Assembly: GCA_040752695.1 (NCBI GenBank)
Contig: JBFMGO010000009.1
Coordinates: 9,789 to 73,788, forward strand
DNA length: 64,000 nucleotides
Origin: a bacterium
GTDB lineage: Bacteria; SZUA-182; DTGQ01
Reading direction: 5' to 3'
The notes under the pieces are model-generated. The model saw only the letters and a program-made list of their open reading frames with translations, searched no databases and had not been told where the DNA came from. The translations under genes were made by a program, and so were the position numbers. Positions 4,912 through 45,683 of this stretch are shown one piece after another. Numbering within the stretch: position 1 is the stretch's first letter; every line of letters starts with the position of its first letter.

Positions 4912-6051
4912 TCATTGACTAGAAGCTCCGTTCCACACACCGAACAGCGGTAATTGTACTCTTTTGGAGGAGGACCGAATGGCTCTTCCATCACCTTCAT
5001 CATTGAAGGGTTTTTGCTCCTTTGTCTCATATTTACCTTTCTTCATCTCCTCAAGCTCGTTATAGATAATACCATATTTGGGGTGCCATATTAGCCAGAT
5101 ACCCATCTCTTGCCCACAACGGGGACAAATGAACGGATCTTTCCCTGTGCTCTCCTGGTATCTTTCCCGATAGGTTTTAGGAGTGATAATCTGAATCGCA
5201 CCATGAACTGCTCTCTTTATTTTGGCCAGGGCTTCTCGAACAATTACCTTAATCTTCTCGAAAGTCTTGGTCGCTTGAACCCCGTAATACCTGATCCTTT
5301 TAAACCCTTTGGGAAGAACATGCTGGATCATTCTCCCGATAAAGGTATATACATCCACGATCTCTTTCTCTACCTTCTCCGTCTTGTGAGACCGGTAATG
5401 ATAGGTCACGCTCTGCCCATCATAGGCATCTATTCTTCTCACCGAAATCGGTGGACTCACCACATATTTAGCCAGGTATTTGGCTAAACTCTTATAGCGG
5501 GCTGGTACATCCCCTGTTTGCACATGGGCTACAAACCCTTTCGGATAGCGCTCGTAGCAATAATCTACCAACCTGTCTATCTCATCCGTATCCAACTGCT
5601 CTCTTAACATCTCCAGCAAATACCACTGCCACTTCCTATGCAGCACATGATACGGTAAATAATTCAAAGAGACCCACTTGCAACTCTCCTCATCCAATCC
5701 CCCGCTGGTTGCTATAATGTGAAGATGGGGATTATATTGACCATTTCTCCCATGAGTCTGGAGCACTACTATGTAGCCTCCCTTTAACCTCTTCCTACTC
5801 ACGCAGCTAAAAAAATCATCCAGACACTTGTTTACAAGTCTCATGAACGGCCCCAATAATTCTGGATGATTGTAGAAGGTCTGACGTAAAACTTCTGGTA
5901 CGGTCAGTATAATATGCCGGTAGATCACTCCCTCATGCAGCATCTTGCTTATCTGGCTAACCCAATCATCTACATACACCTTCCCGCATCGCAAGCACAG
6001 TGAACACTTGCAACTCATCGATACTATTCTTGTCCCCTGCCCGCAATGCAT
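4912..6051 (-). CDS. IS91-family transposase, main body (HUH motif 'NPHLHIIATSGGL', C-terminal CxxC zinc ribbon)
   Basis: 'GGYIVVLQTHGRNGQYNPHLHIIATSGGL' matches the IS91/IS801 HUH motif. 'SMSCKCSLCLRCGK' is the N-terminal zinc-binding domain. C-terminal 'CPRCGQEM'. Confidence 0.75.
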   Translation of the reverse strand: MHCGQGTRIVSMSCKCSLCLRCGKVYVDDWVSQISKMLHEGVIYRHIILTVPEVLRQTFYNHPELLGPFMRLVNKCLDDFFSCVSRKRLKGGYIVVLQTHGRNGQYNPHLHIIATSGGLDEESCKWVSLNYLPYHVLHRKWQWYLLEMLREQLDTDEIDRLVDYCYERYPKGFVAHVQTGDVPARYKSLAKYLAKYVVSPPISVRRIDAYDGQSVTYHYRSHKTEKVEKEIVDVYTFIGRMIQHVLPKGFKRIRYYGVQATKTFEKIKVIVREALAKIKRAVHGAIQIITPKTYRERYQESTGKDPFICPRCGQEMGIWLIWHPKYGIIYNELEEMKKGKYETKEQKPFNDEGDGRAIRSSSKRVQLPLFGVWNGASSQ

Positions 6052-6332: not shown

Positions 6333-7253
6333 TTACATCCGGGTGACTTCTCGACGGGATTCAAGCACAAAATTCCAAAGGGCCTGAGCGACCGGCGAAA
6401 GGGTTTTCGAGCGAAGACGAACAAGATAGAAATTTCTGGTGAACCGTGCATTGCGCAAGGGGACAGCTTTCAAAAGGCTGGCTGCAAGTTCACATTTCAG
6501 TGCAGCTCCTGGGATGAGACAGACACCCATGCCTGCCACGGCAGCCCGCTTTACCGCTTCGATGCTGCCCATGTGCGCCACGACCTTGAGCTCTGATTGG
6601 GATATGTTTTTTTGGGAAAATACCCTTTCGATCAATCGCCTGGTCCCAGATCCTTCCTCTCTCATGATAAACGGGAACTCTCTGGCCTGGGCCAGAGTGA
6701 GATTTTCGGAAATCTCAGGGAAATGAATTGGAGAATAGGTGAGCAAAAGCTCATCGTCGCCCAGAATGCAGGAGGCGAATTGCTCTTCATCAGGCATGCT
6801 GCCCACTGCTCCAAGCTCCACTTTCTCCAGGCAGACATCCCGTAAGATACTGGCCGTGTTTCCCGTAATAAGGTGAACAGTGACCTTTGGGTGTACCTTT
6901 ATGAAACCGGATATGATATCCGGCAGGATATAGGCTGCCGGTGTCGTGCTTCCACCAAGCGAAACGCTCCCCTCGATTCTGTTTAAAAAGGTATTGACCG
7001 CAGCAATGGCCTCTGTGCGTGCGGTAATAACTTTTAACCCCATTCGATACAATACCTCACCGGCCGGCGTAAGATGAATCCGGTTCTTACGGCGGTCGAA
7101 TAGTGGTACGCCCAGTTCAGATTCAACGGTTCGAATATGAGTGCTGATTGTGGACTGCTTGATGCCAAGACACAGCGCGGCCTCGGAGAAGCTCCCCAAT
7201 TCTGCACAGGTACAAAAAACTTCCAGATGATGAATGTCTATATTCATCTTCAT
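6333..7253 (-). CDS. LysR-family transcriptional regulator
   Basis: N-terminal HTH 'IHHLEVFCTCAELGSFSEAALCLGIKQSTISTHIRTVESELGVPLFDR' followed by a LysR substrate-binding domain. First gene of the selenium-associated same-strand array. Confidence 0.85.
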   Translation of the reverse strand: MKMNIDIHHLEVFCTCAELGSFSEAALCLGIKQSTISTHIRTVESELGVPLFDRRKNRIHLTPAGEVLYRMGLKVITARTEAIAAVNTFLNRIEGSVSLGGSTTPAAYILPDIISGFIKVHPKVTVHLITGNTASILRDVCLEKVELGAVGSMPDEEQFASCILGDDELLLTYSPIHFPEISENLTLAQAREFPFIMREEGSGTRRLIERVFSQKNISQSELKVVAHMGSIEAVKRAAVAGMGVCLIPGAALKCELAASLLKAVPLRNARFTRNFYLVRLRSKTLSPVAQALWNFVLESRREVTRM

Positions 7254-7367
7254 TCATCTTCACCTCACCTCAATGAATCCCTTATGCCTGTTTCAACGAA
7301 TCCCTTGTCTCAATGAATCCCCTGATGTTTTACTGTATGTCTTACTGTAGTCTTGCCTCATCTTCGT

Positions 7368-8525
7368 CTATTCGCCTCTCGCATAGGATTTTAATGCATA
7401 TATGGCAATGTCAATCTCCTTCTCGGTATTAAAATAAGACAGGGAAAACCGGACCGTTCCATGCGGAAAAGTGCCCAGGGTTTGATGAGCCAGCGGTGCA
7501 CAGTGCAGCCCTGGTCTTGCGCATATTCTCCACTCGCGGTCAAGGTAATAGGAAATTTCTGAAGCCAATGCTCCCTTCATGTTAAATGAAACCACAGCTA
7601 CCCGCTCGGCTTCGGGTGCGTAAACTTCAATCTCATCAATTTCCCGGAGCTTTTGCAGCAGATACTGCGTTAATTGCTGTTCACGCTCGATGATCTTCTC
7701 TATTCCCTCATCCAGAATGAACTGAATACCTGCGCCTAGGCCAGCCAGTCCTGGCGTGTTTACTGTTCCTGCTTCGAATTTATCCGGTGGAAAATCGGGC
7801 TGAACTGCTTTTTCCGATAAACTGCCCGTCCCTCCGCACATAAAGGGTGCGAGAGCATCAGGATCTTTAACAATGAGAGCGCCGGTCCCCTGAGGCCCGA
7901 AAAGATGCTTATGGCCGGTTATGGCAAAAAGGTCAAACGGCGTCCTGGCTAAATCTATCTTCATTGCCCCTGCACCCTGCGCACCATCGACCAGGAGTTT
8001 CACCCCCTTTGCCCTGCACGTTTCATATATTCCAGCCAGATCAAGCTTCGTGCCGCACACATTGGAGGCTGAAGTAACGGCAGCAAGTCTGGTTTCATTG
8101 CCTATGGCTGCTTCGATCTTTTGAGGAGTGATCAGGCCGTTTCTGTCCCCCTGGACGATTTTAAGCTTGATCCGGCCTTTGTTTTTAAGATGATTGAGCG
8201 GTCTTTGCACTGAATTGTGTTCCATAGAGGTGGTTAAGACTTCCCCCCCCGATTCCGATTCCATGGTTCCGTAAAGGGCTATATTCAGTGCTTCCGTGGC
8301 GTTTTTAGTCAGGATGACTTTTTCCGTTTCGGGAAAATTGAAAAGCTCCCCTATTGCCTCACGGCAGTGATAGACAATCTCTGCCGCTTTGATTGACAAA
8401 AGATGTGAGGACCTGCCCGGATTGGCATTGGTATTTTTCAGGCAATCAATGATAGCCTCAGTCACTGAAAGGGGCTTGGTTCCCGAAGTGGCTGCATGGT
8501 CGAAATAAATTACTTTTTGCTCCAT
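7368..8525 (-). CDS. Class V aminotransferase: cysteine desulfurase / selenocysteine lyase-like enzyme
   Basis: PLP-lysine motif 'ITGHKHLFGPQGTGALIV' and the overall NifS/CsdA-like pattern, 385 aa. Confidence 0.75.
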   Translation of the reverse strand: MEQKVIYFDHAATSGTKPLSVTEAIIDCLKNTNANPGRSSHLLSIKAAEIVYHCREAIGELFNFPETEKVILTKNATEALNIALYGTMESESGGEVLTTSMEHNSVQRPLNHLKNKGRIKLKIVQGDRNGLITPQKIEAAIGNETRLAAVTSASNVCGTKLDLAGIYETCRAKGVKLLVDGAQGAGAMKIDLARTPFDLFAITGHKHLFGPQGTGALIVKDPDALAPFMCGGTGSLSEKAVQPDFPPDKFEAGTVNTPGLAGLGAGIQFILDEGIEKIIEREQQLTQYLLQKLREIDEIEVYAPEAERVAVVSFNMKGALASEISYYLDREWRICARPGLHCAPLAHQTLGTFPHGTVRFSLSYFNTEKEIDIAIYALKSYARGE

Positions 8526-8667
8526 TATTCTGCTTTGCTTTATCTTGCGGCGATTAGGTTTTCATGACGGCTATCAAATTAAATGATAGCTATCAAATTA
8601 AATGCTGGTAATTAAATTAAGTGCTGGCTTAAAGTAAATGGTAGTTATTATTATCAAACGATGGTTA

Positions 8668-9351
8668 TTAAATGGTAATCACCTTGGTTGATGTGAGCAT
8701 AGCTTCTGAAATATCATACATGTTGGAAATTTTGCCTGCGCCGAGCTCTCCGGTGAGATGAAAGTAATTCAGGCAGGTTCCGCAGACCAGAAGCTCAATT
8801 CCTTTTTCTTCGAGCTCCTGCAGATAAGCAAGGGTTCCGGCCCCCTTGATCGTCAATTTTACGCCGCTGTTCATGAAACAGATTGTTCTGGGTTGAACGG
8901 ACAGATCTTTAATGGTGGCTATGAAGGCATTGAGGAGGTTAATGCCCAATTCATCACCGCCCTGCCCAATGCGGTCCCTGGTAATGAAGATCGTTGTGCT
9001 TGTGCCTGCCTGGTAGGGGGAGGTACAGGAGTAGTCTTCCGGATTGAATCCAGCCATCGATTTCATTGATTCTTTTAATTTCATTGATCCTGATGGTTCT
9101 GTGGTTATCACCTGGCCCGACAAATCATTGGCAGGTCCAGCCTGAGTGTATATGTGAAATTCGCCCTTCTGCTCTTCCACACGGTCAATCTGTGCTCCGC
9201 TGCGCTTAAGAAACCTTACTACGTTATCCCTTGATGCTGCGCTGCTGACCATTACCAAAAGAGACTGTCCGCTCGCCTGCTCAAATGCTTCCTTTGTCTT
9301 TACCACAGGTTTGGGGCAATCCAACCCTCTGGCGTCTACGAGTATTGACAT
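8668..9351 (-). CDS. yedF: YedF-like selenium-metabolism protein (TusA-like N-domain with CPxP motif plus DsrE-like domain)
   Basis: N-terminal 'LDCPKPVVKTKEAF' is the TusA CPxP motif. The ~130-aa C-terminal half is DsrE/DsrF-like. Size and architecture match YedF. Confidence 0.65.
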   Translation of the reverse strand: MSILVDARGLDCPKPVVKTKEAFEQASGQSLLVMVSSAASRDNVVRFLKRSGAQIDRVEEQKGEFHIYTQAGPANDLSGQVITTEPSGSMKLKESMKSMAGFNPEDYSCTSPYQAGTSTTIFITRDRIGQGGDELGINLLNAFIATIKDLSVQPRTICFMNSGVKLTIKGAGTLAYLQELEEKGIELLVCGTCLNYFHLTGELGAGKISNMYDISEAMLTSTKVITI

Positions 9352-9522
9352 ATGAATCCTCCTTACTTCTTGTCTCTATTTCTTGTCTCTGGATGCTGGT
9401 TTCTGATTGCTGGTCTTCCGGATGCTGGATGCTGTTTTTTTGTATACCTGGGTGCCAGTGCTGCCCGCCAGAAAGTTAATCGCCGGTTTCTTCCCCTTGA
9501 GGCAGGATAGCCTGCCTATCCC

Positions 9523-10377
9523 TCACTCCCCGATCCTGTCCCTTCTTGAAGCATGCACAGCCGCACCAAGAGCACCCACCATCTGGGGATTTTCCGGTAC
9601 AATCAGCTTTCTCCCAAGCTTTTTCCCAAGGAGCATGGCCAGGCAGGGATTCAAGGCTCCACCCCCGGCAAAGAGGATCGGATGCCTCAGGCCGACCCGG
9701 TTGACCATGGGCTCTATTCTCTCCACAATAGACTGGTGAATTCCCAGTGCGATGGTGTGGGGATCTTCGCCCTTGGCCAGCAGTGAAATTACTTCCGACT
9801 CAGCGAAAACAGTACACATGCTGTTGATCTTTATGAAACTTTTGGCCATGAGCGCAAAGCTTCCAAATTCAGCGATTTCAATTTCAAAGGAATGAGCCAT
9901 GACCTCGAGAAACTTGCCGGTCCCTGCCGCGCAACGGTCGTTAATGGCAAAATCTTCGAATGAGCCGTTCCCTGCCAGGGCAATTACCTTGGTGTCTTGC
10001 CCTCCGATATCAATAACCATCCGCGCTTGTGGGTGCAGATAGTGTGCTCCAAGGGCAAAGGCCTTGATCTCGGTTATAGTCCGCCCGGCAAGATTCCCAT
10101 GGGCCATGCGGCGGCCATACCCTGTGGCCACAGTATGTTGACAGTCTTTCTCTGCCCGGTCCTTATTCGCCCCGTCTTTCTCTGCGTGGCCCTTCTCATC
10201 CGCCGCGCCTTCATTTGCGCCTTCATTGCCTTCTTTCTGTAAAGCGCGGCGAAGCTTCTTGAGGGGATTTACTCCGCCAGTCATAACCTTGAATTCCACA
10301 ATGCCATTATTCTGATCCAGGATGACATACTTGGCCGTTCGAGAGCCAAGGTCAATACCGATAAAAGCCATTTTCAC
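9523..10377 (-). CDS. BadF/BadG/BcrA/BcrD-type ATPase (HgdC-like activator of 2-hydroxyacyl-CoA dehydratase / double-cubane reductase) with a low-complexity insert
   Basis: N-terminal 'MAFIGIDLGSRTAKYVIL' is the ASKHA ATPase phosphate-1 motif. 'CAAGTGKFLE' and 'FAGGGALN' match HgdC-family motifs. Insert 'EGNEGANEGAADEKGHAEKDGANKDRAEKD' is encoded by a short tandem-duplicated DNA segment. Confidence 0.8.
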   Translation of the reverse strand: MKMAFIGIDLGSRTAKYVILDQNNGIVEFKVMTGGVNPLKKLRRALQKEGNEGANEGAADEKGHAEKDGANKDRAEKDCQHTVATGYGRRMAHGNLAGRTITEIKAFALGAHYLHPQARMVIDIGGQDTKVIALAGNGSFEDFAINDRCAAGTGKFLEVMAHSFEIEIAEFGSFALMAKSFIKINSMCTVFAESEVISLLAKGEDPHTIALGIHQSIVERIEPMVNRVGLRHPILFAGGGALNPCLAMLLGKKLGRKLIVPENPQMVGALGAAVHASRRDRIGE

Positions 10378-10476
10378 TCAGTCTCCTGAAAAACCTCATC
10401 CCTGGAAACCATGTCCCTGATAACTATATTCTTAAAAACCATGTCCTTAAAAGATCATGTCCCTGAAAACCATAAT

Positions 10477-11751
10477 TCACGATTTAATCCGCTCCAGAAA
10501 GGCTTCAATTCTTGTCTGGATCTGCCCCGCATCTTCGGCGGCATAATCCGTTTCAATCTTGAGCACAGGGATACTGGCCTCTTTCAGAGCCTGTTCAACC
10601 TTTGTGTACTCGACATTGTAGGTATGGCAGAACTGAAGGGTATTGTAAACTACACCGTCAACATGATATTCCCTGGCATAGTGTATGATCTGCTCGGTTC
10701 TCTCATGGTTAGGAGTAAAGCAGGAGCAGTTTATGGACAGGTACCTGCGGGCAAGAGCATCCAGTTGTCCGTTCAAATCGGCCGATGACTCATCGACCAG
10801 GGTCTCGAAGTAGCGCGTTCCCGTACATGCTTCCTCAACAACTACCGATGCCCCCGATGTTTCGATAATATGATGCAGCTTCCAGTTGGGTACGACACTT
10901 GGACAACCGGAAAGCATAACGCGGGGCGCATCTTCGGCAAATGGGCTGATGCCCTTTTCAATTCTATTGTTCAGTTCCGCTTTCAGTTTATTTACTGCTG
11001 CGGTAAATCGCGGGATATCGTCATAGAATGCGACCTGCGAAATTAAAAGGGCATCCTTCCCGCTGATTGGCGAGGGTTGATGCTTGCGGGTTTCGTATAA
11101 GCCGGCCAGTGCTCTCCTTTTATTGTTCATGACTGCTATGGCCTCTTTCACATTCTCGAAGCTGATCTTTGTCCTGCCTGCCTCTTCCAGTTTTTCCATC
11201 AGCCTTTCAATCTCCAGGCGGTATATGCTTTGCCCTGCTTCATTTTTCATATGGGGAACATGCATAACCTGGGTTGGAATGAAATTGTTCAGAACCTCCC
11301 AGGCTTTCTTTTTGCCATCGCAGGTGGTTTCTCCAATGAGAAAATCGGAGGACTCAAAATAAGGGCAAATCCGGGCCAGTTTAAATCCGACGGATGACTT
11401 TATCAATGGACAGATGTTTCGTGGCAGGAATTCTTCCGCTCTGGAAATGGTAAGATCCGCCCCGCCGCACAGTCCGATCGGCAAGCCCCCGGCAGCAAGG
11501 ACTAACTCGTCAGGCACAAAGAGACAAAAAGTGCCAGCTATGAATCCACCTTTGGCCTTATGCTCCAACAGTTCCTTGATGCGCAGGCCATGAACCTCAC
11601 CGATAACAAAATCGAAATATTCCATGGCTTCAGGCCGTTTATCCTGCCTAAGGTAGATGTCGGTATAGACTTGCCCCAGGACATCAAGAAGATTGCAGTG
11701 AGTTTCAAGGTCAATGTTTAAGCTCTTCCATATTTCATCATAAGTGCTCAT
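10477..11751 (-). CDS. 2-hydroxyacyl-CoA dehydratase / BcrC-BadD family protein, single subunit (double-cubane-cluster-protein-like)
   Basis: 424 aa with HgdB/HGD-D family cysteines ('CGGADL', 'ICPLIKSS', 'TTCDGKKK'). Immediately downstream of its ATPase activator. Only one dehydratase-like subunit is present. Confidence 0.7.
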   Translation of the reverse strand: MSTYDEIWKSLNIDLETHCNLLDVLGQVYTDIYLRQDKRPEAMEYFDFVIGEVHGLRIKELLEHKAKGGFIAGTFCLFVPDELVLAAGGLPIGLCGGADLTISRAEEFLPRNICPLIKSSVGFKLARICPYFESSDFLIGETTCDGKKKAWEVLNNFIPTQVMHVPHMKNEAGQSIYRLEIERLMEKLEEAGRTKISFENVKEAIAVMNNKRRALAGLYETRKHQPSPISGKDALLISQVAFYDDIPRFTAAVNKLKAELNNRIEKGISPFAEDAPRVMLSGCPSVVPNWKLHHIIETSGASVVVEEACTGTRYFETLVDESSADLNGQLDALARRYLSINCSCFTPNHERTEQIIHYAREYHVDGVVYNTLQFCHTYNVEYTKVEQALKEASIPVLKIETDYAAEDAGQIQTRIEAFLERIKS

Positions 11752-11815
11752 TTTTACTCCCTTACAACATACTATAAATATGTTAAGATGTATGGAATTT
11801 GGTTAGATGGAGGAA

Positions 11816-12142
11816 TTAAACGAATTTGAATTTCTTTTTCCTTTGCGCCTCGTCGTCCTTTTCCCAGCGGTAAATCTGATCGATCTCTACCCGGTTATCG
11901 GTAAGGATTTTTTCGATTTCTTCCTTTTCCTGCCAGGGGATCTTGCAGCAAAAGCCGCAGTTGGAGCTGAACTCCCTTGGTACCGGTATCATTTCGGGCT
12001 TTTTGCCGCACTTGTCAAGCACACTTTTAGCTTTGAGAGCAAAGTGGGTGGTTTGAAAGGTTATAACTGCATAGACCGCCATGCTGACTCCGTGATGGGT
12101 AAATATCCCAACAAGGGATTTGCCGTTACTCTTCTCTGACAA
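11816..12142 (-). CDS. DUF3343-like small protein (putative Se/S carrier protein family)
   Basis: 'YAVITFQTTHFALKAKSVLDKCGKKPEMIPVPREFSSNCGFCCKI' matches the pattern of DUF3343 proteins found in selenium-utilisation loci. The antisense 110-aa ORF has no recognisable features. Confidence 0.55.
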   Translation of the reverse strand: MSEKSNGKSLVGIFTHHGVSMAVYAVITFQTTHFALKAKSVLDKCGKKPEMIPVPREFSSNCGFCCKIPWQEKEEIEKILTDNRVEIDQIYRWEKDDEAQRKKKFKFV

Positions 12143-12240
12143 GCTCAGAGCTTTCTGACTATCAATAAATCTCTGGCTATTACTATCTATACTTTTATAT
12201 TTTTTTTAAATGCTTGAAATGCCGATAGTTTCACAATGAT

Positions 12241-12282
12241 CACTTTTTGTCATTCCCGCGAAGGCGGGAATGACAAAAAGTG
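12241..12282. repeat. Perfect 19-bp-stem hairpin (palindrome) 'CACTTTTTGTCATTCCCGC-gaag-GCGGGAATGACAAAAAGTG'
   Basis: Verified base by base. Lies in the 330-bp intergenic gap between DUF1573 and DUF3343 genes. Shares the 'GTCATTC' core with dispersed repeats at 17.26, 20.60 and 20.86 kb. No flanking U-tract, so probably not a simple terminator. Confidence 0.85.
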
Positions 12283-12360
12283 TAAAAGTATAGTTACTAT
12301 CTGACTACTAATAAATATATCTTCTGTGCTTACCAAGTCAAGAGAAATATTGAAAAAATC

Positions 12361-12416
12361 TATAGATGCTATAGATAACATAGATGGTATGGATAGCATA
12401 GATACTATAGATACAC
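12361..12416. repeat. Degenerate tandem hexamer repeat (ATAGAT)n, about 8 units
   Basis: 'tatagatgctatagataacatagatggtatggatagcatagatactatagataca'. Confidence 0.8.
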
Positions 12417-12473
12417 AAAGAATATAAACGCCCCCTGATTTGTGGCCGGGAGCCCCCTTATTTTTCACTGTTC

Positions 12474-13241
12474 TCAATTCGTTGTAGAAGCTTCAGCAGA
12501 GCTTAAAAATACAGGGATAATCACTTCCGGTGTGGTTTTACTGTCTGTCTTGATAATCACCTGACCATTCACTCTGGTACTGTCCTTTTGTGCTTTGGCT
12601 GAAACAATAATCGCCAGGGACTCATTCTGTTTCAAACCGAACGGTAACTTGCTGTCTTCCTTTGCTGCTTTTACCGAAATAGCGGAGGAAGGGGCCGTAT
12701 TTATGGATAGAATAGACATCGTGTCCTTGCCGGTATTTTTCAGCACTACCTCCTGAGTTGCCACCTCACCCGCCTTTACCTGCCTGAAATAGGCATTAGG
12801 AGGTGAAGCTTCCAGATCGACTCTGACCATAGCCTCAATGGTCAGTTGAGAGACCGGGTGGGCCTGATCATCGGAATGGACATAGATGACCTTCTTTTGT
12901 TTATCCTTACGATATGCAGAATTAAAGGTAATCTCAATCTGCCCGCTTTCACCCGGATTGATTGTCTTGCTGGAGAGAACTGCTGCGGTGCATCCGCAGG
13001 ATGTCTTCACTCCGTTGATGTTCAGTACCTGATCACCGATATTTTTGAAGCTAAAAATATGATTAACCTTTTTATTCTGGTATATCTCCCCAAAATCAAA
13101 CGAGGTCTCAGGAAAAGTAATCTGAGGGCCCGCTAGTGCGTATGCCGGATAGAGTATATATGATAGCGATAACACGGCCAAAATGAACAAACTCATCAAC
13201 AAGGCTGATAAGGAGGTCGCTGGGATTTGATTCTTTCTCAT
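12474..13241 (-). CDS. Secreted DUF1573-domain protein
   Basis: N-terminal signal/TM 'ATSLSALLMSLFILAVLSLSYIL' and the DUF1573 hallmark 'NINGVKTSCGCTAAVL'. Confidence 0.6.
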   Translation of the reverse strand: MRKNQIPATSLSALLMSLFILAVLSLSYILYPAYALAGPQITFPETSFDFGEIYQNKKVNHIFSFKNIGDQVLNINGVKTSCGCTAAVLSSKTINPGESGQIEITFNSAYRKDKQKKVIYVHSDDQAHPVSQLTIEAMVRVDLEASPPNAYFRQVKAGEVATQEVVLKNTGKDTMSILSINTAPSSAISVKAAKEDSKLPFGLKQNESLAIIVSAKAQKDSTRVNGQVIIKTDSKTTPEVIIPVFLSSAEASTTN

Positions 13242-13356
13242 GGTCTTACCTGTATCCTTTCATATATAATGTATATAATATTATATAATATTATATACAT
13301 TATATATAATAAAACATTGAGGGTCATATACATTGAAGATCATATGCGTTGAAGAT

Positions 13357-15666
13357 TTACCTTTTCGGGTCTCTCAGTGTCCGGATATCTCCGGTCCGGC
13401 TGGTGAATCCGATAGAGTCGAGGTAATCCAGAATCAAAACGGTGGTCCTTCGGCTCAGGTCAGCTATATTGCTGCGGAAATCTGCAATGGTAAGGCTTTT
13501 TTCCTTTTGTATATATGCTGTTATCATCTCCTTGAGTTTATTCAAAGGCTGACTATGGATGATGGTATCTGGCGTGATGCGGATTAAAACGCCCTGACTT
13601 ACGAGCATCTTCAATAACCTCTCCACCTCCTCTCTATGTTGGGTGTTGCATATGGTGTTATTTTTAATGCTGCTTTGATGGGTGTTGTTCCGGGTGCCGT
13701 TTTGAGAGTTATTATGGGTACTATTGACAATGTTCTGGTAAAGGTGACTTATCTTTAATGGCTGGTATCCGCTGGATAGAAACACTCTTTCCATCATAGT
13801 AATAATTTCCTTCTGCCAGGAATTTAATGACGGCCTATGATCGGCCAGCCTGACATGAGGACCTTCCAGCGCTATGGCCTGACGCGCTTCGAGGTCCCCG
13901 ATCAGGCAATGAAAGAGCCGGATATCCATCTCTCCTGATGTCCTTGCCCTGAGCATCTCTTTGCCCATACCCTTTTCAAGGGGATTTTGGCTATGAAATT
14001 TTTGCAGAGTGTCTGTTATTTTCCTTTTGATGCTCGCAGCTTGCTTGCTGGCAAAAAGAAATTCTTCTTTATTCTTATCAATATTCTTATCAATATTCTT
14101 ACCAATACCGTTACTATTACTATAACTGCTCCCGTTAGCATTACCGTTCTTCTTATCAATATCTTTATCAAGGCAATAGAGAACGCCTTTGTTTTTTAGC
14201 CGGGTCAGGATATCGTTAAGCTCGATATGAGTAAGCGCAGTCTTCCTGAGCAATTCGGTTTTCGTGCAAAGGGTGAAGGTATGTCGTGAGATTATCTCAC
14301 TGACGAAGCTCTCGAACCTTCCCTGCTCCAGGAGTTCAAGCCGGGCTATTCTGCCTGTACCCTTCGAAGTGACGCTTGTATCTTTCAGGACGCTGCCTGC
14401 GCCCTTCGAGATACTGCCTGCGCTCTCCGAGATACTGTAACGCCTGGGATGGGCATCAAGGATAACACCTCCGCCAATAGTATGCTGGGGGCTGAGAGAT
14501 CGGATAATGAATCTATCGAATACCAGAGGCGACGCCTTTTCCTCCAGCCTGAATTGGACAATAGCCTGCTCGCCGGGCTGCATCTTGTCTCTATCCATGA
14601 GAATTACTCTGGCTATGAGCTCGGTGGTGCCGGTATACAGGCGTACTCTGGTCCTGTTGACCAGGGGAGAGGCATTTGATTCCAGGTACCGGAGCCTGGC
14701 ATCCAGTATGCCGGTTGGAAGCAGCAGTGAATCCGGCGGTGCGATGGTATCACCTCTTTTAATCTGAGAAGTGCTGATACCGGCCAGGTTAAAGCCGACC
14801 CGCTGCCCTGTCCGGGCCTCTTCAACCCATTGGTTATGTACCTGAATACCACGGATCTTGACCTTGCAGCCCGCAGGATAAATCATTGCCGCAGATCCGG
14901 GCCTCACATTTCCATCCACAAGCGTGCCGGTAGCTATCGTGCCGTAGCCTGCCATGGTAAAAACCCGGTCTACCGGAAGCCGGAATTCACCCTTAAGTCT
15001 GGTTTTTTCGACTTTGCCGATGAGTTCCGTAAGAGCCGTGTTTACCTGGCCAATTCCCTCGCCGGTCCGGCATGAGCAATCGATTATCGACGTTTTCCGG
15101 AGAAAGGTCGGCTCAATGAGCTTGGCAACTTCCTCGTGAACCAGTTCCAGCCAGTCCCTGTCCACCAGATCGACCTTGTTTACCACGACAAGCCCGAATC
15201 TGATTCTCAGCAGTGAGAGAATATCGAGGTGTTCTCTGGTCTGAGGCATGGGACCATCATCGGCTGCTATGACCAGAATGACTATATCGACTCCTGATAT
15301 TCCCCGCAGCATGTTCTTGATAAATTTCTCATGCCCCGGACAATCGATAATACTTACCACGTGCCCGCTGGGGAGCCGATAGGGGGCAAATCCTGGTTCT
15401 ATCGATATGCCCCGAACCTTTTCCTCTTTCAGCCGGTCCGTATCCACGCTGGTAAGGGCTTTAGCCAGAGCGGTCTTGCCGTGGTCGATATGCCCGGCCA
15501 GGCCTATGGCAACATTCCGCACTACATCTCCAGCTACTTTTTGCGCCTGGCCGCTGGACCCATTTTGCCCCAGACCGCTGGATCCATTCCGCGCCAGGTA
15601 GCTATATCCACTCTGTCCCAAGTATCGAACTCCATTCTGTGTCAGGTCCGCAGTTCTATTCTTCAA
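13357..15666 (-). CDS. selB: Selenocysteine-specific translation elongation factor SelB (with N-terminal extension and an internal low-complexity insert)
   Basis: G-domain motifs 'AGHIDHGKT', 'DCPGHEKF', 'VVNKVDL'. Domain order EF-Tu-like then C-terminal winged-helix region. 769 aa versus about 620 typical. Insert '[30 protein letters not shown]' derives from tandem 'ttcttatcaata' repeats near 14080-14115. The true start may be downstream of 15666. Confidence 0.85.
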
Positions 15667-15718
15667 TGAAATGAAAAGTTACCCAACTTTTTCTTTCATC
15701 TCTTGCCACAAGGAAAGA

Positions 15719-15822
15719 GAGGTTCAAAAGAGAGGGTAAGGGGAATCGAACCTCCTACGGCCCTTGCACAGGCCGACCAGCGGATTTGAAGTCCGTGGGG
15801 CACACCAGTACCATTACCCTCG
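15719..15822 (-). tRNA. selC: tRNA-Sec (anticodon UCA), selC; ends approximate
   Basis: Minus-strand sequence contains 'GGACUUCAAAUCC' (anticodon arm core identical to E. coli selC), a long variable arm 'CGGCC-UGUGCAAG-GGCCG', the T-loop 'GGUUCGAUUCC' and an 8-bp acceptor stem 'GAGGGUAA/UUACCCUC'. Sits immediately upstream of selB. Not folded with software. Confidence 0.72.
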
Positions 15823-30340: not shown

Positions 30341-31264
30341 ATGTCTTACACGTTCGAACAAGTAGATGAGGCGTTAGTTCGCATTCAGAAAAACCACCCG
30401 GAGATCGAAGAAGTGATTGTATTCTACAGAGAGATACTGAAAAAGCAGTTGCAGATTAAAAGCAGCATCCATCTGCCCCCTTTCTCTCTTGCTGATGCAA
30501 AGGCAAAAGGAAAGTTTGAACATGGGATTCCGTTACTTGAGTTGAGTCTCGTCCCCGACTCCCTCAAGGTTTATGAACCCCTGGTGAAGGAGTTAACCAG
30601 GCTGTTGAAAAAAAGAGGACCGGCCGTCACGGCAGAGATAGAAAAAATTACCAAAGATATTCTGAGGGATTCTTATATCTTTATCAGTCTGGCCAATAAT
30701 TACCTGTTGCATAACTGGGCACCTATCCATGATCTGGCCAGGGCACATGAGCTCGATATCGCTCTTTTGTTTTTCTTTATCAAAAGCATTGTAAAACCCT
30801 TCGTTGAATCCCTGGCAGAGGGAATTACTACCAGTTACCAGCTTCCGCCCTGGTCGGAGTCATTGTGTCCTATCTGCGGTTCTCTCCCTGCACTGGCCTA
30901 TTTGAAGCTGGCCGATTCCAACAATAATGATAATGGACAGGAACACACCATTTGCCGGGTAAAAAAAAGATTTCTCGTCTGTTCCCTCTGCAATTACATC
31001 TGGCCTTTCCCACGGTTAAGGTGCCCTTTTTGCCAGACGGAAAGACGTGATGCCCTGCACTATTTTTGCGTAGATTCGGATGAAAAAGGATATAGGGTCG
31101 ATATATGCACGGATTGTAAAGGGTATATCAAGACCATTGATTATGAATACCAGCCACTCCCTGAAGGACTGCTCTTTCTGGAAGACCTCAACACTATCTA
31201 TCTGGATTTGATTGCTGAAAAGGAGGGCTACTGTAAAAAAGCCAAGGGGATCTTTTCCCTGTAA
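30341..31264 (+). CDS. fdhE: FdhE-like formate dehydrogenase accessory protein
   Basis: About 307 aa with four CxxC pairs in the typical FdhE arrangement ('CPICGSLP', 'CSLCNYIWPFPRLRCPFCQ', 'CTDCKGYIK'). Confidence 0.6.
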   Translation: MSYTFEQVDEALVRIQKNHPEIEEVIVFYREILKKQLQIKSSIHLPPFSLADAKAKGKFEHGIPLLELSLVPDSLKVYEPLVKELTRLLKKRGPAVTAEIEKITKDILRDSYIFISLANNYLLHNWAPIHDLARAHELDIALLFFFIKSIVKPFVESLAEGITTSYQLPPWSESLCPICGSLPALAYLKLADSNNNDNGQEHTICRVKKRFLVCSLCNYIWPFPRLRCPFCQTERRDALHYFCVDSDEKGYRVDICTDCKGYIKTIDYEYQPLPEGLLFLEDLNTIYLDLIAEKEGYCKKAKGIFSL

Positions 31265-41126: not shown

Positions 41127-43823
41127 TCAATCTCCCTTGGCTAATCTTTCTATCCTTACTGCACATACTTTCAGTTCCGGAATCTTGGCCACCGGATCGA
41201 TCGCTGTATTGGTTAAGGTATTAGCTGGGGACTCGCGAAAATGGAAGGGAAGGAATACCACTCCTTGAGAGAGTCTGTCAGTAATCAGGGCCTTCACCCT
41301 GATCTCTCCCCTTCTGGACTTTACTAAAATTTCCTCCTCGGAGAGGATATTGATGGATTTGGCATCCTGCTCACTGATTTCCAGATACCCTTCAGGGCAA
41401 ATTTCATCCAAGGGAGCCACCCGCCGGGTCATCGATCCCGTGTGGTAATGAAACAGCCTTCTTCCCGTAGTCAGAGTAAAGGGATATTCCGTATCGGCTA
41501 TTTCAGCCGGAGAGGAGTATTCAACAGGTGTAAACTTGCCCAGTCCCCGGGAGAATCGGCGATGATGCAGGTACTTTGTCCCCTGGTGCTGAGGAGTAGG
41601 ACAGGGCCACTGCAACCCTCCCTCTTCCTCTATTCTCTTGTAGGTTATCCCTCCATAGATAGGAGTCAATTCGGCAATCTCCTGCAAGATCTCCAAAGGG
41701 GAGGAATAGTGCATGGGATAGCCCATTGCGGTGGCGAGATCACAGATGATCTGCCAGTCACTCCTAGCCTCTTCAACCGGAACAAGGGCTTGATTCATCT
41801 TCTGGACCCTTCGTTCCGTATTGGTAACCGTACCTTCCTTTTCGGCGAAACTCACTGCCGGCAAAACAACATCCGCCAATTGAGCGGTCTCTGTTAAAAA
41901 TATATCCTGAACAACGAGAAAGTCAAGAGATTCGAGCTCTTTTTTTACTTTATTCAGATCGGGATCGCTCAGCATCGGATTTTCACCCATGATATAGAGT
42001 CCCTTGATCTCGCCGGTCAGTGCTCGATGAAACATCTCGGTGACTGTCAAACCCGGTTTATTCGATAAAGAGACACCCCATTTATCCTCAAACCTGAGCA
42101 AAATCTGAGGATCAGCAACGCTCTGATAGCCTGGAAAGACATTGGGCAGGCATCCCATGTCACACGCGCCCTGGACATTATTTTGCCCCCTGAGCGGATT
42201 GACGCCGGAATTTTCCTTGCCCACATTACCGGTCAGCATGGCCAGATTCGCTACAGCCAAAACGTGATTGGTGCCGGAGCTGTGCTGAGTAATACCCATG
42301 GCATAAAGGATGGTGGCTGTTTCTGCCCGTGCATAAGCCCGGGCAGCCTCCTGGATCAATGACCCAGGAACGCCTGTTATCTGCGATACCTTCTTGAGGT
42401 CGTATTGGTCAATGACCGCCTTGAAGGCTTCGTACCCTTCGGTACGCTCCTCAATGAAGCGCTGATCTGCAAGCCCCTCGTCTATGATCACTTTCATCAT
42501 GCCATTCAAGAGGGCCACATTGGTTCCTGGCCGCAGTTGCAGCCAGATATCGGCTATGCGGGTCAGTGCGATCGGCCTCGGATCGGCTACGATCAGGGTG
42601 CTTCCGTTTTTCCTGACTGCCTTCTTAACCTGAAGGCCGACAATGGGATGAGCTTCGGTTGTATTGGAACCGATAACCAGAATTGCCTGAGCCTGGCCAA
42701 TTTCGGCGATTGAGTTGGTCATGGCTCCACTGCCAAACGCTGTGGCTAGACCAGCCACGGTAGAGCTGTGTCAAAGCCTGGCGCAGTGATCGACATTGTT
42801 TGTGCCTAAAACCCCCCTCACAAATTTCTGAAAGAGGTAATTTTCCTCATTGGTACACCGGGCCGAACTAAGACCAGCCAGGCTGTTATTTCCGTGCTGG
42901 TTCTTGATCTGCTGGAATTTTTTGGCCACAAGGTTTAAGGCATCATCCCACGAAGCTCTGACATGTTGGCCATTCTTTTTGATAAGAGGATATTTCAAGC
43001 GGTCAGGATGCTGAACAAACCCATAGCCAAATCTTCCCTTGCTGCACAGATAGCCTTCATTTAAAGAAGCGCTATCCGAATGAAGATTGACGATCTTGTT
43101 CTCCCTGATATGAAGTGTCAGATTACAGCCGCATCCGCAGTAAGGGCAGACCGTCTTAACCCATTTCGACTGCCATTTCCTGCCCTGCTGTTTGGAAGGC
43201 TTGGCAGTCAAAGCCCCTACGGGACAGGAAGCAAGGCACTGGCCGCAAAACTCGCAGTTGAGCTTTCGATCGTAAGGGGTGCCGATTCTGGTTTGAAATC
43301 CCCTGCCAATAAACCCGATAGCTGCAACGCCCTGCACTTCATCGCAGACACGCACGCATCGGCCGCACAAAATACACTTGCTGTTGTCCCGCTCGATAAA
43401 AGGATTGGTATCATCGATACTATCGGTCCTCTTCTCACCCGCAAGCCTGGTATCTTTTAATCCGTATTGGTAGGCCAGGTCCTGAAGCAGACAATCACCG
43501 GCTTTTTCACAAAACATGCAGTCTTGAGCATGATCGGAAAGAAGCAGCTCAACAATCAGCTTCCGGTAGGTATCGATCCTCTCCGACTCGGTCCGGATTT
43601 TCATACCCGCAGCGATAAAGGTAGAGCAGGCGGGAACGAGTTTGGGGAGCCCCGCAACCTCCACCAGGCACAGACGGCAGGCACCAAAAGGGCTCAAATC
43701 CCGGCAGTCGCACAGGGTGGGAATCAAGACCGTATTTCCCCTGGCAACCTCCAGAATGGTCTTTCCGGGACTGGCGGCGATTTCTTTTCCATTCATGGAT
43801 ATGTATATTTTTTTTTCTTCCAT
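41127..43823 (-). CDS. fdhA: Formate dehydrogenase catalytic subunit, selenocysteine-containing (NuoG-like N-terminal 2Fe-2S/4Fe-4S domains plus Mo-bisPGD domain); read through the in-frame TGA at 42771-42773
   Basis: Two ORFs in the same frame are separated only by TGA. The context '[25 protein letters not shown]' is the canonical FdhF/FdhA selenocysteine site. N-terminus has 2Fe-2S ('[16 protein letters not shown]') and 4Fe-4S ('[13 protein letters not shown]', '[12 protein letters not shown]') clusters. Confidence 0.85.
42742..42758 (-). promoter_or_regulatory. Bacterial SECIS-like hairpin (GUGGCU-GGUCU-AGCCAC) 13 nt downstream of the Sec UGA
   Basis: Perfect 6-bp stem with an apical loop containing GGUC, as in the E. 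coli fdhF SECIS apex (UGCA-GGUC-UGCA). Spacing from UGA is typical. Confidence 0.6.
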
Positions 43824-43835
43824 GTGCGATTTCCT

Positions 43836-45683
43836 TTATATAATTGCCTGGGCCGGGCAATTCTCGATACAGGTTCTGCATCGGATACATCGGTCCTTGT
43901 CAATCGCAGCCACCGTCTTGGGTTTCCATTCAACTGCACCTGCCGGACACGCCTTTTGGCAAAGACCGCATTTTTTGCACAGTTCCTGAGCTACCTCAAA
44001 CTTTACCAGGGCGCTGCAAACGTGGGCCGGGCATCTTTTCTCCAGAATATGGGCCCGATATTCGTCCATAAAATACCGGATAGTGCTCAAGACCGGATTC
44101 GGGGCTGTCTGACCAAGGCCGCACAATGCTGTGGATCTTATCCCTTCCGCCAGCTCTTTGAGTAGTTCCAGATCGGACTCTTTTCCGTTTCCTTCGGTGA
44201 TTCGAGTAACAATCTCGAGCATCCTTTTGGTTCCGATACGGCAGGGGACACACTTTCCACAGGATTCATTTTGAATGAATTCCAGGAAAAACCGGGCTAC
44301 ATCGACCATGCAGTTGGCCGCATCCATGACCACCATCCCGCCGGATCCCATAATGGCTCCCAGGCTGATCAGAGAGTCATAATCTATGGGAGTATCGAGG
44401 TATTCCTCCGAAATACAGCCACCGGAAGGGCCTCCCAGTTGCACCGCCTTGAATTTCCTTCCCCTCGGAGGCCCTCCGCCAATACCGAAAACGACCTCCC
44501 GCAGGGTTATCCCCATCGGAACTTCCACCAGCCCGGTATTATTGACCTTGCCAGCCAGGGCGAATATCTTTGTCCCTTTACTTTTCTCCGTGCCGATTCC
44601 TGCATACCACTGAGCGCCTCTGGAGATAACAAAAGGTATATTAGCAAAGGTTTCAACGTTGTTAATATTTGAAGGCTTACCCCATAAGCCCTTGTGAGCA
44701 GGGAACGGAGGCCGCGGACGGGGCATACCTCTTTTGCCCTCTATTGAAGCCATGAGAGCGGTTTCTTCTCCGCAGACAAATGCTCCTGCTCCTTCTTTTA
44801 TGTGCAAATCAAAAGAAAAATCTTTTCCCAGGATGTTCTGGCCTAAAATTCCGAGCTCCTGTACTTGGGATATGGCTATTTTGAGGTTGGATATAGCTAA
44901 AGGATATTCAGCTCTGGCATACACGTACCCTTGGCTGCATCCTATGGCATACCCCGCTATAAGCATCCCTTCCAGCACCTGATGGGGATTGCCTTCCAGA
45001 AGGCTCCGGTCCATAAAGGCTCCGGGATCCCCTTCATCCGCATTGCAGATCAAATACTTAGGCTCTCCTTTGGCCTTTGCGCAAAACTCCCACTTGAGAC
45101 CTGTTAAAAATCCCGCACCACCCCGGCCACGGAGGCCCGACTTTTTCACCTCCTCAATGACCTGCTCTGGGGTCATTTCAAAAATTACTTTGAGAAAAGC
45201 ATCATATCCTCCAACACTGATGTAATCCTCTACATTCGTGGGATCAATGAGGCCATTGTAGTGAAATACCACCCGCTTTTGATTTTTATAAAAGGGAACA
45301 TCATAAGTGTATACATACTTCTGTTTTGTCTTTGGGTCTTTGTATAACAGCTTTTCGATAAACTCGCCCTTCTCAATGGTCCGCTCAATGATATCAGGCA
45401 CATCATCTACCGATACCTGATGGTAAAAGATATCATCCGGCAATATAACCACAATCGGGCCTTTTTCGCAAAAACCATGGCACCCAGTCTTTTTAATGCT
45501 TACCGTGTTTGATAGTCCTCTTTTTTCTATTTCTTCTTGAAAAGTCTGGATGAGTTTTCCGCTGCCAAAGGCAACACATCCTGTACCTTTACAAACACTG
45601 ATAATCTTTTTATTCTGATCCTTTTGTCCTCTTAAGGCTTCCCTTAAACTGACAAAATCCTCTCTTGAGTTAATCCTTCTCAT
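43836..45683 (-). CDS. NuoF-like NAD(P)H-binding flavoprotein subunit (FMN, thioredoxin-like 2Fe-2S N-domain, C-terminal 2x[4Fe-4S] ferredoxin); FDH beta / HndC-like
   Basis: 'GRGGAGFLTGLKW', 'ICNADEGDPGAFMDR', 'ESCGKCVPCRIG', and C-terminal 'CKKCGLCQKACP...CIRCRTCIENCP'. Confidence 0.85.
   Translation of the reverse strand: MRRINSREDFVSLREALRGQKDQNKKIISVCKGTGCVAFGSGKLIQTFQEEIEKRGLSNTVSIKKTGCHGFCEKGPIVVILPDDIFYHQVSVDDVPDIIERTIEKGEFIEKLLYKDPKTKQKYVYTYDVPFYKNQKRVVFHYNGLIDPTNVEDYISVGGYDAFLKVIFEMTPEQVIEEVKKSGLRGRGGAGFLTGLKWEFCAKAKGEPKYLICNADEGDPGAFMDRSLLEGNPHQVLEGMLIAGYAIGCSQGYVYARAEYPLAISNLKIAISQVQELGILGQNILGKDFSFDLHIKEGAGAFVCGEETALMASIEGKRGMPRPRPPFPAHKGLWGKPSNINNVETFANIPFVISRGAQWYAGIGTEKSKGTKIFALAGKVNNTGLVEVPMGITLREVVFGIGGGPPRGRKFKAVQLGGPSGGCISEEYLDTPIDYDSLISLGAIMGSGGMVVMDAANCMVDVARFFLEFIQNESCGKCVPCRIGTKRMLEIVTRITEGNGKESDLELLKELAEGIRSTALCGLGQTAPNPVLSTIRYFMDEYRAHILEKRCPAHVCSALVKFEVAQELCKKCGLCQKACPAGAVEWKPKTVAAIDKDRCIRCRTCIENCPAQAII

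Follow-up and report, generated by a model that had tools for sequence, protein, structure and literature searches.

A class I double-cubane cluster protein and its partner ATPase within a selenium-handling gene block of a SZUA-182 bacterium

In a 64-kb stretch of DNA from a bacterium of the GTDB lineage SZUA-182 (contig JBFMGO010000009.1; this whole stretch is hereafter called the window), we identified a class I double-cubane cluster protein (DCCP) and its partner ATPase (DCCP-R) within a six-gene selenium-handling block. This block is the core of the finding and consists of DUF3343, DCCP, DCCP-R, YedF, a TIGR01977-family enzyme resembling cysteine desulfurases and selenocysteine (Sec) lyases, and a LysR-family regulator of the selenium-metabolism-associated type (LysR_Se). 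The locus is a further case of a recurrent, partly described locus type. Elements were called from the open reading frame (ORF) listing and with ARAGORN, Rfam, Pfam and NCBIfam. An earlier reading made from the letters alone (the sequence-only reading) had described nine elements, all on the minus strand, and the ORF listing, ARAGORN, Pfam and NCBIfam recovered each of them at the positions it had given; its placement of a reductase pair inside a selenium-associated gene set was likewise borne out, as DUF3343, YedF, the TIGR01977 desulfurase and the LysR_Se-type regulator flank the pair. Our main reading, to which we assign a probability of roughly 0.4, is that DCCP and DCCP-R may use ATP to reduce a selenium species to the selenide required by SelD.

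The DCCP gene (10477..11751, minus strand, as for all nine elements) encodes 424 amino acids (aa) and matched PF06050 (E 7e-121) and the DCCP model NF040772 (488.6 bits against a cut-off of 350). The next-best NCBIfam model was HadC (133.5 against a cut-off of 700), followed by BzdN (104.7 against 454) and BcrC (81.7 against 421). The protein aligned with the crystallised DCCP of Carboxydothermus hydrogenoformans (PDB 6ENO and 7YYL, 421 aa; E 1e-137) from residue 6 of both proteins to the end; the alignment with 6ENO contained one single-residue gap, late in the sequence, and was gapless through the N-terminal half, which holds four of the seven cysteines of the DCCP motif. All seven motif cysteines were found within 10477-11751 (C76, C95, C114, C144, C309, C342 and C375), in register with those of 6ENO and invariant in 14 homologs, which settled in its favor a point that the sequence-only reading had left to be checked. 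In this motif, six cysteines ligate the [8Fe-9S] cluster and the seventh, Cys94 of the C. hydrogenoformans protein (DCCP_Ch), lies at the opening above the cluster (PMC7317905); by alignment, C95 of the window protein is the counterpart of this non-ligand residue. Class I DCCPs are defined by an N-terminal extension that closes the coenzyme A (CoA) funnel, and class II proteins are YjiM-like (PMC7317905). Because this extension is present in the window DCCP, we assigned it to class I, the "small-molecule" class. Judged by its sequence, the protein is a class I DCCP and the predicted catalytic [8Fe-9S] component of the system, and the family assignment is secure.

DCCP-R (9523..10377) is an archerase-type ATPase of the BcrAD_BadFG family (TIGR00241, 234 against a cut-off of 125) whose matches to archerase structures include DCCP-R (PDB 4EHT, E 1.5e-52; 7YYL_E, E 3.5e-45). 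It retains Cys149 and Cys188, the [4Fe-4S]-bridging residues, as well as the ATP motifs DLGS, DIGGQD and GGGA. The window contains a single HGD-D gene and a single BcrAD gene, and the earlier suggestion that the HgdB-like protein is a DCCP with one partner ATPase was supported by the NF040772 and TIGR00241 scores, the seven-Cys motif and the 6ENO alignment. In the Carboxydothermus system, ATP hydrolysis by the archerase drives a very low-potential electron into the [8Fe-9S] double cubane, access to which is by narrow channels, and the enzyme studied reduces acetylene (at a reported rate of roughly 4 per min), azide and hydrazine (PMC7317905). The structural papers on DCCP call its physiological function unknown and nowhere mention selenium. 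The window pair resembles the C. hydrogenoformans proteins (CHY_0487/CHY_0488; 6ENO, 7YYL) in the identical spacing of the seven cysteines, the class I extension, and the order of catalytic gene then archerase ATPase, and the alignments mark it as an orthologous-grade relative of that crystallised system. It differs in being embedded in a selenium block, and in that its ATPase carries a low-complexity insertion rich in Glu, Lys, Gly and Ala (about residues 40-75), which is absent from structural homologs.

It could be argued that the 424-aa protein is an ordinary 2-hydroxyacyl-CoA dehydratase or a benzoyl-CoA-reductase-type enzyme with its partner subunit encoded elsewhere, as the PF06050 family and the activase type are shared with these enzymes and many database names say dehydratase. 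HadBC and HgdAB with their activator, and the class I benzoyl-CoA reductases, do have the superfamily fold and the ATP-driven "archerase" electron injection in common with DCCP; however, they are heteromeric, with one [4Fe-4S] cluster per subunit and a wide CoA funnel, whereas the window DCCP is a single subunit with the seven-Cys motif and an occluded channel. The profile scores (82-134 bits for HadC, BzdN and BcrC against cut-offs of 421-700, compared with 488.6 for the DCCP model), the cysteine motif together with the channel-closing N-terminal extension, the single subunit (there is no second HGD-D gene in the 64 kb) and the gene context (no CoA-transferase or acyl-CoA genes nearby) effectively refute this explanation, and an acyl-CoA dehydratase or benzoyl-CoA reductase identity was excluded on these grounds. 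Placement in a characterised acyl-CoA dehydratase clade, which the sequence-only reading had named as the outcome that would count against it, was thus not observed, and its remark that no acyl-CoA-handling genes accompany the pair was confirmed, the flanking genes being of other kinds. The nitrogenase Fe protein and MoFe protein are functional analogues only, as their folds and cofactors are unrelated to those of DCCP-R and DCCP.

Scanning one genome per species with a profile gave 594 DCCP relatives, and we analysed the best 80 of these (those closest to the window DCCP) together with as much as 10 kb of sequence to each side of DCCP, some contigs being short; single loci are cited below by number (e.g. 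L063). Label-free clustering of the neighbouring ORFs ranked the neighbours as activase, an 86-aa family, YedF, an ABC-transporter ATPase, a 327-aa family, LysR and desulfurase. In Pfam and NCBIfam searches, the 86-aa family proved to be DUF3343 and the 327-aa family SelD, and a smaller cluster corresponded to the selenium transporter YedE; the ABC-transporter ATPase, seen at 16 loci, is generic and not selenium-specific. When neighbours were called with local hidden Markov models at conservative thresholds, the activase was present at 51 of the 80 loci and DUF3343 at 40, in 34 cases within 500 bp of DCCP. SelD and long YedF were each found at 15 loci, LysR_Se at 14, a TIGR01977 desulfurase near DCCP at 11, SelB at six and YedE at four, and split DsrE (8/80) and TusA (7/80) proteins were found in Bathyarchaeia in the order DsrE-TusA-DCCP-SelD. 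At least one strict selenium marker (SelD, SelB, YedF or YedE no more than 10 kb away) was present at 24 of the 80 loci (binomial 9e-18 against a background of at most about 3% per random gene, which is an assumed and not a measured value); where flanks of at least 15 kb were available (42 loci), 15 had such a marker. The selenium contexts did not form a single clade of the DCCP tree but were spread across it, and they spanned at least seven phyla of bacteria and archaea, and the five-gene set of the window also occurs in WOR-3, Halobacteroidaceae, Thermoleophilia and Spirochaetales. DCCPs adjoin DUF3343, YedF or split TusA and DsrE, SelD, desulfurase, LysR_Se, SelB and YedE far above chance. 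The pair therefore recurs beside selenium genes, both by strict marker and by DUF3343, so that the lack of co-occurrence which the sequence-only reading had named as counting against it was not observed, and the selenium association is statistically and phylogenetically robust, and already published at the phyletic level.

Several features of single loci were recorded in the same survey. Sec-interrupted DCCP genes were not found in the 80 loci, where multiple matches proved to be tandem paralogs. A tandem second DCCP paralog was present in 11 of the 80 (L001, L003, L015, L019, L031, L036, L038, L051, L062, L068 and L077), and the paralogs apparently share one ATPase. The second DCCP of L001 is full length, most others are about 360-400 aa with a profile match that begins near position 40, and a longer ORF of about 485-500 aa was seen in L031 and for one of the two additional L003 copies; most of the tandem paralogs lack the N-terminal extension and are class II-like. 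The Bathyarchaeia loci (L026, L037, L044, L047, L056, L064 and L074) carry a Rieske protein, a LysR_Se-like gene on the opposite strand, DsrE, TusA, DCCP and SelD, with YedF split into its two domains and an adjacent ATPase in L056 only. In Thermincola potens (L084), a weak match to the 2-thiouracil-desulfurase family (DUF523-like; 9213-9761) lies divergently beside a bare DCCP-ATPase pair.

Haft's 2022 preprint built NF040772 and, in a section entitled "Double-cubane proteins and selenium", found 955 of 970 strong DCCP matches in SelD-containing assemblies (10.1101/2022.07.06.499078). In Table 1 of Lin et al. 2015, an activase and a "2-hydroxyglutaryl-CoA dehydratase subunit" are among the top STRING partners of YedE, YedF, DUF3343 and LysR in Slackia (PMC5322559). 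Because of Haft's phyletic report and this table, the statement in the sequence-only reading that such a linkage had not been described fails, and credit for first noticing the DCCP-selenium association belongs to earlier comparative genomics. The same families as in the window occur under consecutive tags in Slackia heliotrinireducens (Shel_25420-25470; PMC5322559), these being the activase (Shel_25420), DUF3343 (25430), a Sec lyase family protein (25440), YedF (25450), a second DUF3343 (25460) and the "dehydratase subunit" (25470). The text of Lin et al., however, passes over the activase and dehydratase-like genes, and it appeared before DCCPs had been recognised (PMC5322559); the window differs from the Slackia-type neighbourhood in that YedE and SelD are absent from its 64 kb, as is SelA. 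With Haft we share the NF040772 family and the conclusion that DCCPs are tied to SelD-containing genomes, but that study drew on phylogenetic profiles and on adjacency to the SAO transporter/MerB-like locus, and YedF and DUF3343 go unmentioned in it. In the literature searched we found no description of how often DUF3343 is the closest partner of DCCP, of the pair's behaviour as a cassette (see below) or of selC*-type tRNAs next to DCCP.

The SAO loci suggest a more indirect link, in which the substrate of DCCP would be some refractory small molecule or organometallic compound with no relation to selenium, reduced as part of a pathway that needs selenoproteins (Haft's SAO model), or in which DCCP and selenium genes would share no more than an anaerobic lifestyle and co-regulation. 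DCCP is present in every genome with an SAO system and adjoins the SAO locus in 21 of 52 species (10.1101/2022.07.06.499078), bare DCCP pairs are found among genes of other functions, for instance those for glycine cleavage or an aldehyde oxidoreductase, and no selenium chemistry is known for DCCP. In contrast to Haft's loci, the window contains no SAO-type genes and the neighbours are selenium-activation and carrier genes. In the window, the pair interrupts a single block and has a selenium-carrier gene to each side, the commonest partners in the survey are selenium-activation and carrier genes rather than selenoprotein genes or a catabolic pathway, and the association spans bacteria and archaea. 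On balance we regard an indirect link as unlikely, although it would account for the bare pairs.

Close relatives of the window locus showed how the pair behaves within the block. Two of them (L081 and L087) have the order SelB-DUF1573-DUF3343-DCCP-ATPase-YedF-desulfurase, followed by a Pst-like ABC transporter and LysR_Se, and a third (L082) has DUF3343-DCCP-ATPase-YedF-desulfurase-LysR with the SelB unit absent. A look-up of close DUF3343 homologs yielded a DCCP-less sister locus (L085), which is otherwise full and in which DUF3343 is directly followed by YedF, with neither DCCP nor ATPase; in L086 and L088, SelD adjoins DUF3343 and DCCP is absent. DCCP and the ATPase are thus an optional two-gene cassette between DUF3343 and YedF that is gained or lost together, and this joint presence or absence within a conserved block supports their co-function.

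The Pst-like transporter occupies the interval between desulfurase and LysR_Se in L081 (8273-11576), L085 (12364-15821) and L087 (14377-17680). It scored 206.4 against a cut-off of 206.6 for the PstS family, 204.5 against 196 for PstC and below the cut-off for PstB, and is a candidate importer of an oxyanion (selenite?). The window lacks this transporter, and an IS91-family transposase (4912-6051) follows LysR instead.

The sister locus that lacks the pair bears on a further explanation, in which selenium would be a part of the DCCP cofactor: selenide would replace the bridging mu2-sulfide, and the lyase, DUF3343, YedF and SelD would be maturation factors for a further SelD-dependent trait. 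The belt sulfides of the nitrogenase FeMo-co exchange with selenium during turnover, tight co-occurrence with SelD fits this explanation equally well, SelD lies directly downstream of DCCP in Bathyarchaeia and in L069, and in half of the loci DUF3343 lies right beside DCCP, an arrangement that would suit an assembly chaperone. Haft considered selenium compounds as substrates or a selenium-bridged cofactor, raising the latter as a formal possibility (10.1101/2022.07.06.499078). However, recombinant DCCP made in Escherichia coli is active and contains an [8Fe-9S] cluster with a sulfide bridge (PMC7317905), and many DCCP loci have no selenium-delivery genes nearby. Since L085 retains the delivery genes without DCCP, these genes have another client, and the presence of SelB and tRNA genes at the same loci is suggestive of Sec supply in general. 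We therefore consider a selenium-containing cofactor to be quite unlikely.

The genes on either side of the cassette encode proteins of the kind expected to carry selenium or sulfur. DUF3343 (Se_S_carrier; PF11823, E 6e-22, 77.3 against a gathering score of 25) lies in an ORF at 11816-12142, and its probable gene is 11816..12082, encoding 88 aa, because the copies in relatives are called in that way. It contains a Cys-Gly (Cys42) in the motif P-x-P-R-x-x-S-x-x-C-G, which was invariant in 20 aligned neighbour sequences and at least 90% conserved across all 42. Its fold was predicted by modelling to be ferredoxin-like (beta-alpha-beta-beta-alpha-beta). A search of its sequence against PDB gave no significant match, and by fold it gave generic ferredoxin-like matches only; the modelled fold would be compatible with a small carrier or chaperone, yet it is not diagnostic. 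No DUF3343 fusions were present among the 23 homologs returned. The long-form YedF (8668..9351; TIGR03527, 189.3 against 110; PF01206 and PF02635) has a TusA-like N-domain, with Cys12 in CPKP, fused to a DsrE-like C-domain with CGTC at 190-193. The class V enzyme dependent on pyridoxal phosphate (PLP) resembles cysteine desulfurases and Sec lyases (7368..8525; TIGR01977, 422.3 against 377) and has both the PLP lysine (Lys206) and the active-site cysteine (Cys342); it satisfied the wider TIGR01977 family but fell below the threshold of the SclA model NF040779 (320.5 against 525). The LysR-family regulator (6333..7253) scored 248.6 on NF040786, which is 1.4 bits under the cut-off of 250, yet 98 bits above the next family, and its L087 ortholog scored 268.2; all 16 aligned LysR proteins (from the window, 13 of the 14 DCCP-adjacent loci, L081 and L082) matched NF040786. 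The YedF and DUF3343 assignments of the sequence-only reading thus survived the searches with TIGR03527 and PF11823, and neither protein was moved to an unrelated family.

These carriers also invite an explanation in terms of sulfur, in which DCCP would reduce a persulfide, a polysulfide or another sulfur species held on TusA/DsrE-type and DUF3343 carriers loaded by the desulfurase, and selenium genes would lie nearby through shared trafficking proteins. YedF does combine TusA and DsrE domains, the desulfurase family has both activities, and there is no selenium-specific DUF3343 clade, as DUF3343 also occurs in organisms that lack SelD (Lin et al., PMC5322559); the DCCP-DUF3343-activase triad of the Clostridia clade, moreover, usually occurs without strict selenium markers. 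The recurrent neighbours, however, are SelD, SelB, the seleno-YedE TIGR04112, TIGR03527 YedF and LysR_Se, and not genes of sulfur oxidation or assimilation. DCCPs are nearly confined to SelD-positive genomes (10.1101/2022.07.06.499078), and so low a potential is unnecessary for sulfur reduction. A sulfur module is, in our estimation, distinctly improbable.

For the reduction of selenium by DCCP and DCCP-R we propose the following order of events. The lyase would generate selenium at the Se(0) level as a Cys-bound perselenide, or a poorly reducible form would be taken up, and the selenium would then be relayed along the single-Cys carriers DUF3343 and YedF and handed over to DCCP, perhaps by way of Cys95, the conserved cysteine that is not a cluster ligand and lies where the cluster channel opens. 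ATP-energised electrons would reduce it to selenide (HSe-), which SelD would convert to selenophosphate for Sec synthesis, and LysR_Se would turn the block on according to selenium status. Many strict anaerobes lack glutathione, and NifS-like lyases require an added reductant for the delivery of selenium to SelD in vitro; in strict anaerobes the DCCP system would stand in for the thiol-based reducing step used elsewhere. The Se(0)/HSe- couple is near -0.7 V at pH 7, a value for which we found no source in the literature searched, and since this lies below ferredoxin, coupling to ATP would be thermodynamically sensible. A tRNA-Sec gene or a selC*-type tRNA gene (see below) lies directly upstream of DCCP in L063 and L083, and FdhA of the window organism has a canonical Sec codon (see below); both observations are consistent with this proposal.

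A bolder version of this proposal holds that class I DCCP, the ATPase and DUF3343 form an ATP-driven selenium reductase of three parts, the missing enzymatic step that would convert Se(0)-level selenium (perselenide, elemental or polysulfide-bound) to selenide for SelD in strict anaerobes, with selenium transiently at the bridging position of the double cubane, and that in this lineage the block belongs to a LysR_Se-controlled selenium-scarcity response together with a selC*/SelB* pair reading UGA as Cys. We regard this combination as doubtful.

Several observations weigh against selenium reduction by the pair. Selenium compounds are not among the known DCCP substrates, the narrow channels of class I DCCPs argue against a protein-bound substrate, and thiols readily reduce perselenides, so that an ATP-driven step may be needless if a perselenide is the substrate. 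The folds of DUF3343, YedF and the desulfurase are of sulfur type, and their selenium role has been inferred from neighbourhoods (PMC5322559). Most SelD-containing genomes have no DCCP (4.7% vs 38%; Haft 2022, 10.1101/2022.07.06.499078), and the pair must be dispensable because the selenium locus of L085 exists without it. In our survey, 24 of the 80 loci had no selenium or sulfur-carrier neighbour at all, many of these being on short contigs, and the 80 loci are those most similar to the window DCCP, from species that are phylogenetically non-independent. Finally, the DCCP of C. islandicus (L083), which is 97% identical to the crystallised enzyme, forms a bare pair with its ATPase beside glycine-cleavage genes; no DUF3343, YedF or desulfurase gene was found downstream in the available sequence, and the contig ends 320 bp upstream.

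Upstream of the six-gene block lie a tRNA gene, a SelB homolog and a DUF1573 gene. The tRNA (15731..15821) was called as tRNA-SeC by ARAGORN and scored 58.9 bits on Rfam RF01852; it has the anticodon UCA, an 8-bp acceptor stem (G1:C72), a 4-bp T stem with a bulged A, a long variable arm and the discriminator U73, and there is no G anywhere after the acceptor stem. Of the features of a genuine tRNA-Sec, it therefore has UCA, the long variable arm and a score above the Rfam threshold, but has neither the 8/5 structure nor G73, the discriminator that SerRS needs. The selC* tRNA-Cys is defined as a tRNA-Sec-like molecule with U73, an 8/4 structure with the bulge A51a, and a UCA or GCA anticodon (PMC5389517, PMC7609411). 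In Syntrophobacterales and Desulfobacterales, selC* is followed by a second SelB copy, SelB* (PMC5389517), and published work suggests that such selC*/SelB* pairs read UGA as Cys. The sequence-only reading had named the window genes selC(tRNA-Sec) and selB; given U73, the 8/4 structure and the bulged A, they are probably selC* and selB* instead, the tRNA being probably of the selC* tRNA-Cys(UCA) type and not a tRNA-Sec. TRNAs with U73, 8/4 structure and a bulged A were also present in L081, L085, L087 and L069. The window agrees with the selC*/SelB* systems of Mukai et al. 2017 (PMC5389517) in U73, UCA, the 8/4 structure with bulged A, and a SelB homolog directly downstream, but differs in that its first pair is G1:C72 and no cysS* follows. 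The main text of Mukai et al. makes no mention of a selC*-type tRNA beside DCCP loci, as seen in the window lineage, L019, L069 and L083.

Two other loci show related tRNA genes next to the reductase. The C. islandicus locus L083 contains a tRNA-Sec-like gene (201-295) that scored 56 bits with the tRNA-Sec model of Rfam; its anticodon is GCA (Cys), it has U73, and its CCA is encoded. This selC*-type tRNA gene precedes DCCP (which starts at 321) by 25-30 nt, and a glycine riboswitch (2418-2598) separates the DCCP-ATPase pair of the locus from the glycine-cleavage operon. L019 has a similar tRNA with a GCA anticodon directly before a SelB homolog. In L063 (Spirochaetales), by contrast, a genuine tRNA-Sec (341-437; G73 and CCA, regular T stem) lies directly upstream of DCCP-ATPase, which is followed by SelA, SelB, YedF, desulfurase, DUF3343 and SelD, a complete Sec machinery around the reductase.

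The SelB-family elongation factor (ORF 13357-15666; TIGR00475, 325 bits against a cut-off of 242) has its likely gene at 13357..15524, with a likely GTG start at 15522 behind GGAG, and starts 206 bp downstream of the tRNA. Pfam detected SelB domains, and the protein comprises the GTPase, domain 2, a beta-barrel and two winged-helix domains, with low-complexity insertions rich in Asn, Ser and Gly that are absent from structural homologs. Because the tRNA bears the selC* signature, this homolog occupies the SelB* position and is a candidate SelB*; an identity matrix of the SelB proteins from the loci did not separate tRNA-Sec-linked from selC*-linked copies. The DUF1573 gene (12474..13241; PF07610, E 2.8e-30) encodes the Cys form of the OS_HP2 family, with the motif S-C-G-C-T in which Cys82 and Cys84 are encoded by TGC; it barely reached the NF041425 cut-off (100.4 against 100), and by eye its N-terminal hydrophobic leader resembles a signal peptide. 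The SelB-DUF1573 pair was seen in L081, L085 and L087 and in none of the 80 genome loci. DUF1573 accompanies DCCP, and is linked with the SelB homolog, only in the window's own lineage.

DUF1573 and DUF3343 are separated by an intergenic gap of 391 bp (12083..12473), which contains a promoter-like site (TTGACT-16-TATATT, 12341-12314) and a hairpin (12241-12282, minus strand) with a perfect 19-bp stem, CACTTTTTGTCATTCCCGC CTTC GCGGGAATGACAAAAAGTG, present in one copy in the window. Among 84 loci, the hairpin motif had a single match, inside L050 and not at the equivalent position, which makes a conserved regulatory role for the hairpin improbable. The sequence-only reading had treated the nine elements as one unit. 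The gap with its promoter-like site at the DUF1573/DUF3343 boundary, and the absence of the tRNA-SelB-DUF1573 unit from L082, make two transcription units more likely. We speculate that the selC*-type tRNA and the SelB homolog, as a separate unit, would share a selenium-scarcity response with the block. In L081, a fluoride riboswitch (221-292) lies upstream of the selC*/SelB unit.

Outside the locus, the flanks encode a large beta-helix/cohesin/dockerin-domain protein, an IS91-family transposase and repeat proteins. Elsewhere in the window, FdhA, a molybdopterin subunit of the formate-dehydrogenase type with a NuoG-like N-terminus (41127-43823, minus strand), has an in-frame TGA at 42771-42773 within the motif HCARL-U-HSS. 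This TGA is probably a canonical Sec codon and FdhA a selenoprotein; it is also possible in principle that the codon is read as Cys, given the nearby selC*-type tRNA. A NuoF-like gene (43836-45683) and an FdhE-like gene (30341-31264) were also found.

The physiological substrate of DCCP has been in question since its cofactor was described, and the source of selenide for SelD in strict anaerobes is likewise unsettled; the window locus and its relatives join both questions in one operon-sized block. The locus names the proteins with which they could be tested (DCCP, DCCP-R, DUF3343, YedF, the TIGR01977 lyase and SelD), and its value lies in turning the question of DCCP function into a concrete experiment. 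If selenium instead proved to be part of the DCCP cofactor, this would constitute a new selenium-dependent trait. If the reductase does make selenide, selenium assimilation would gain a new enzymatic step, and a natural reaction would be known for the first time for an [8Fe-9S] cluster.

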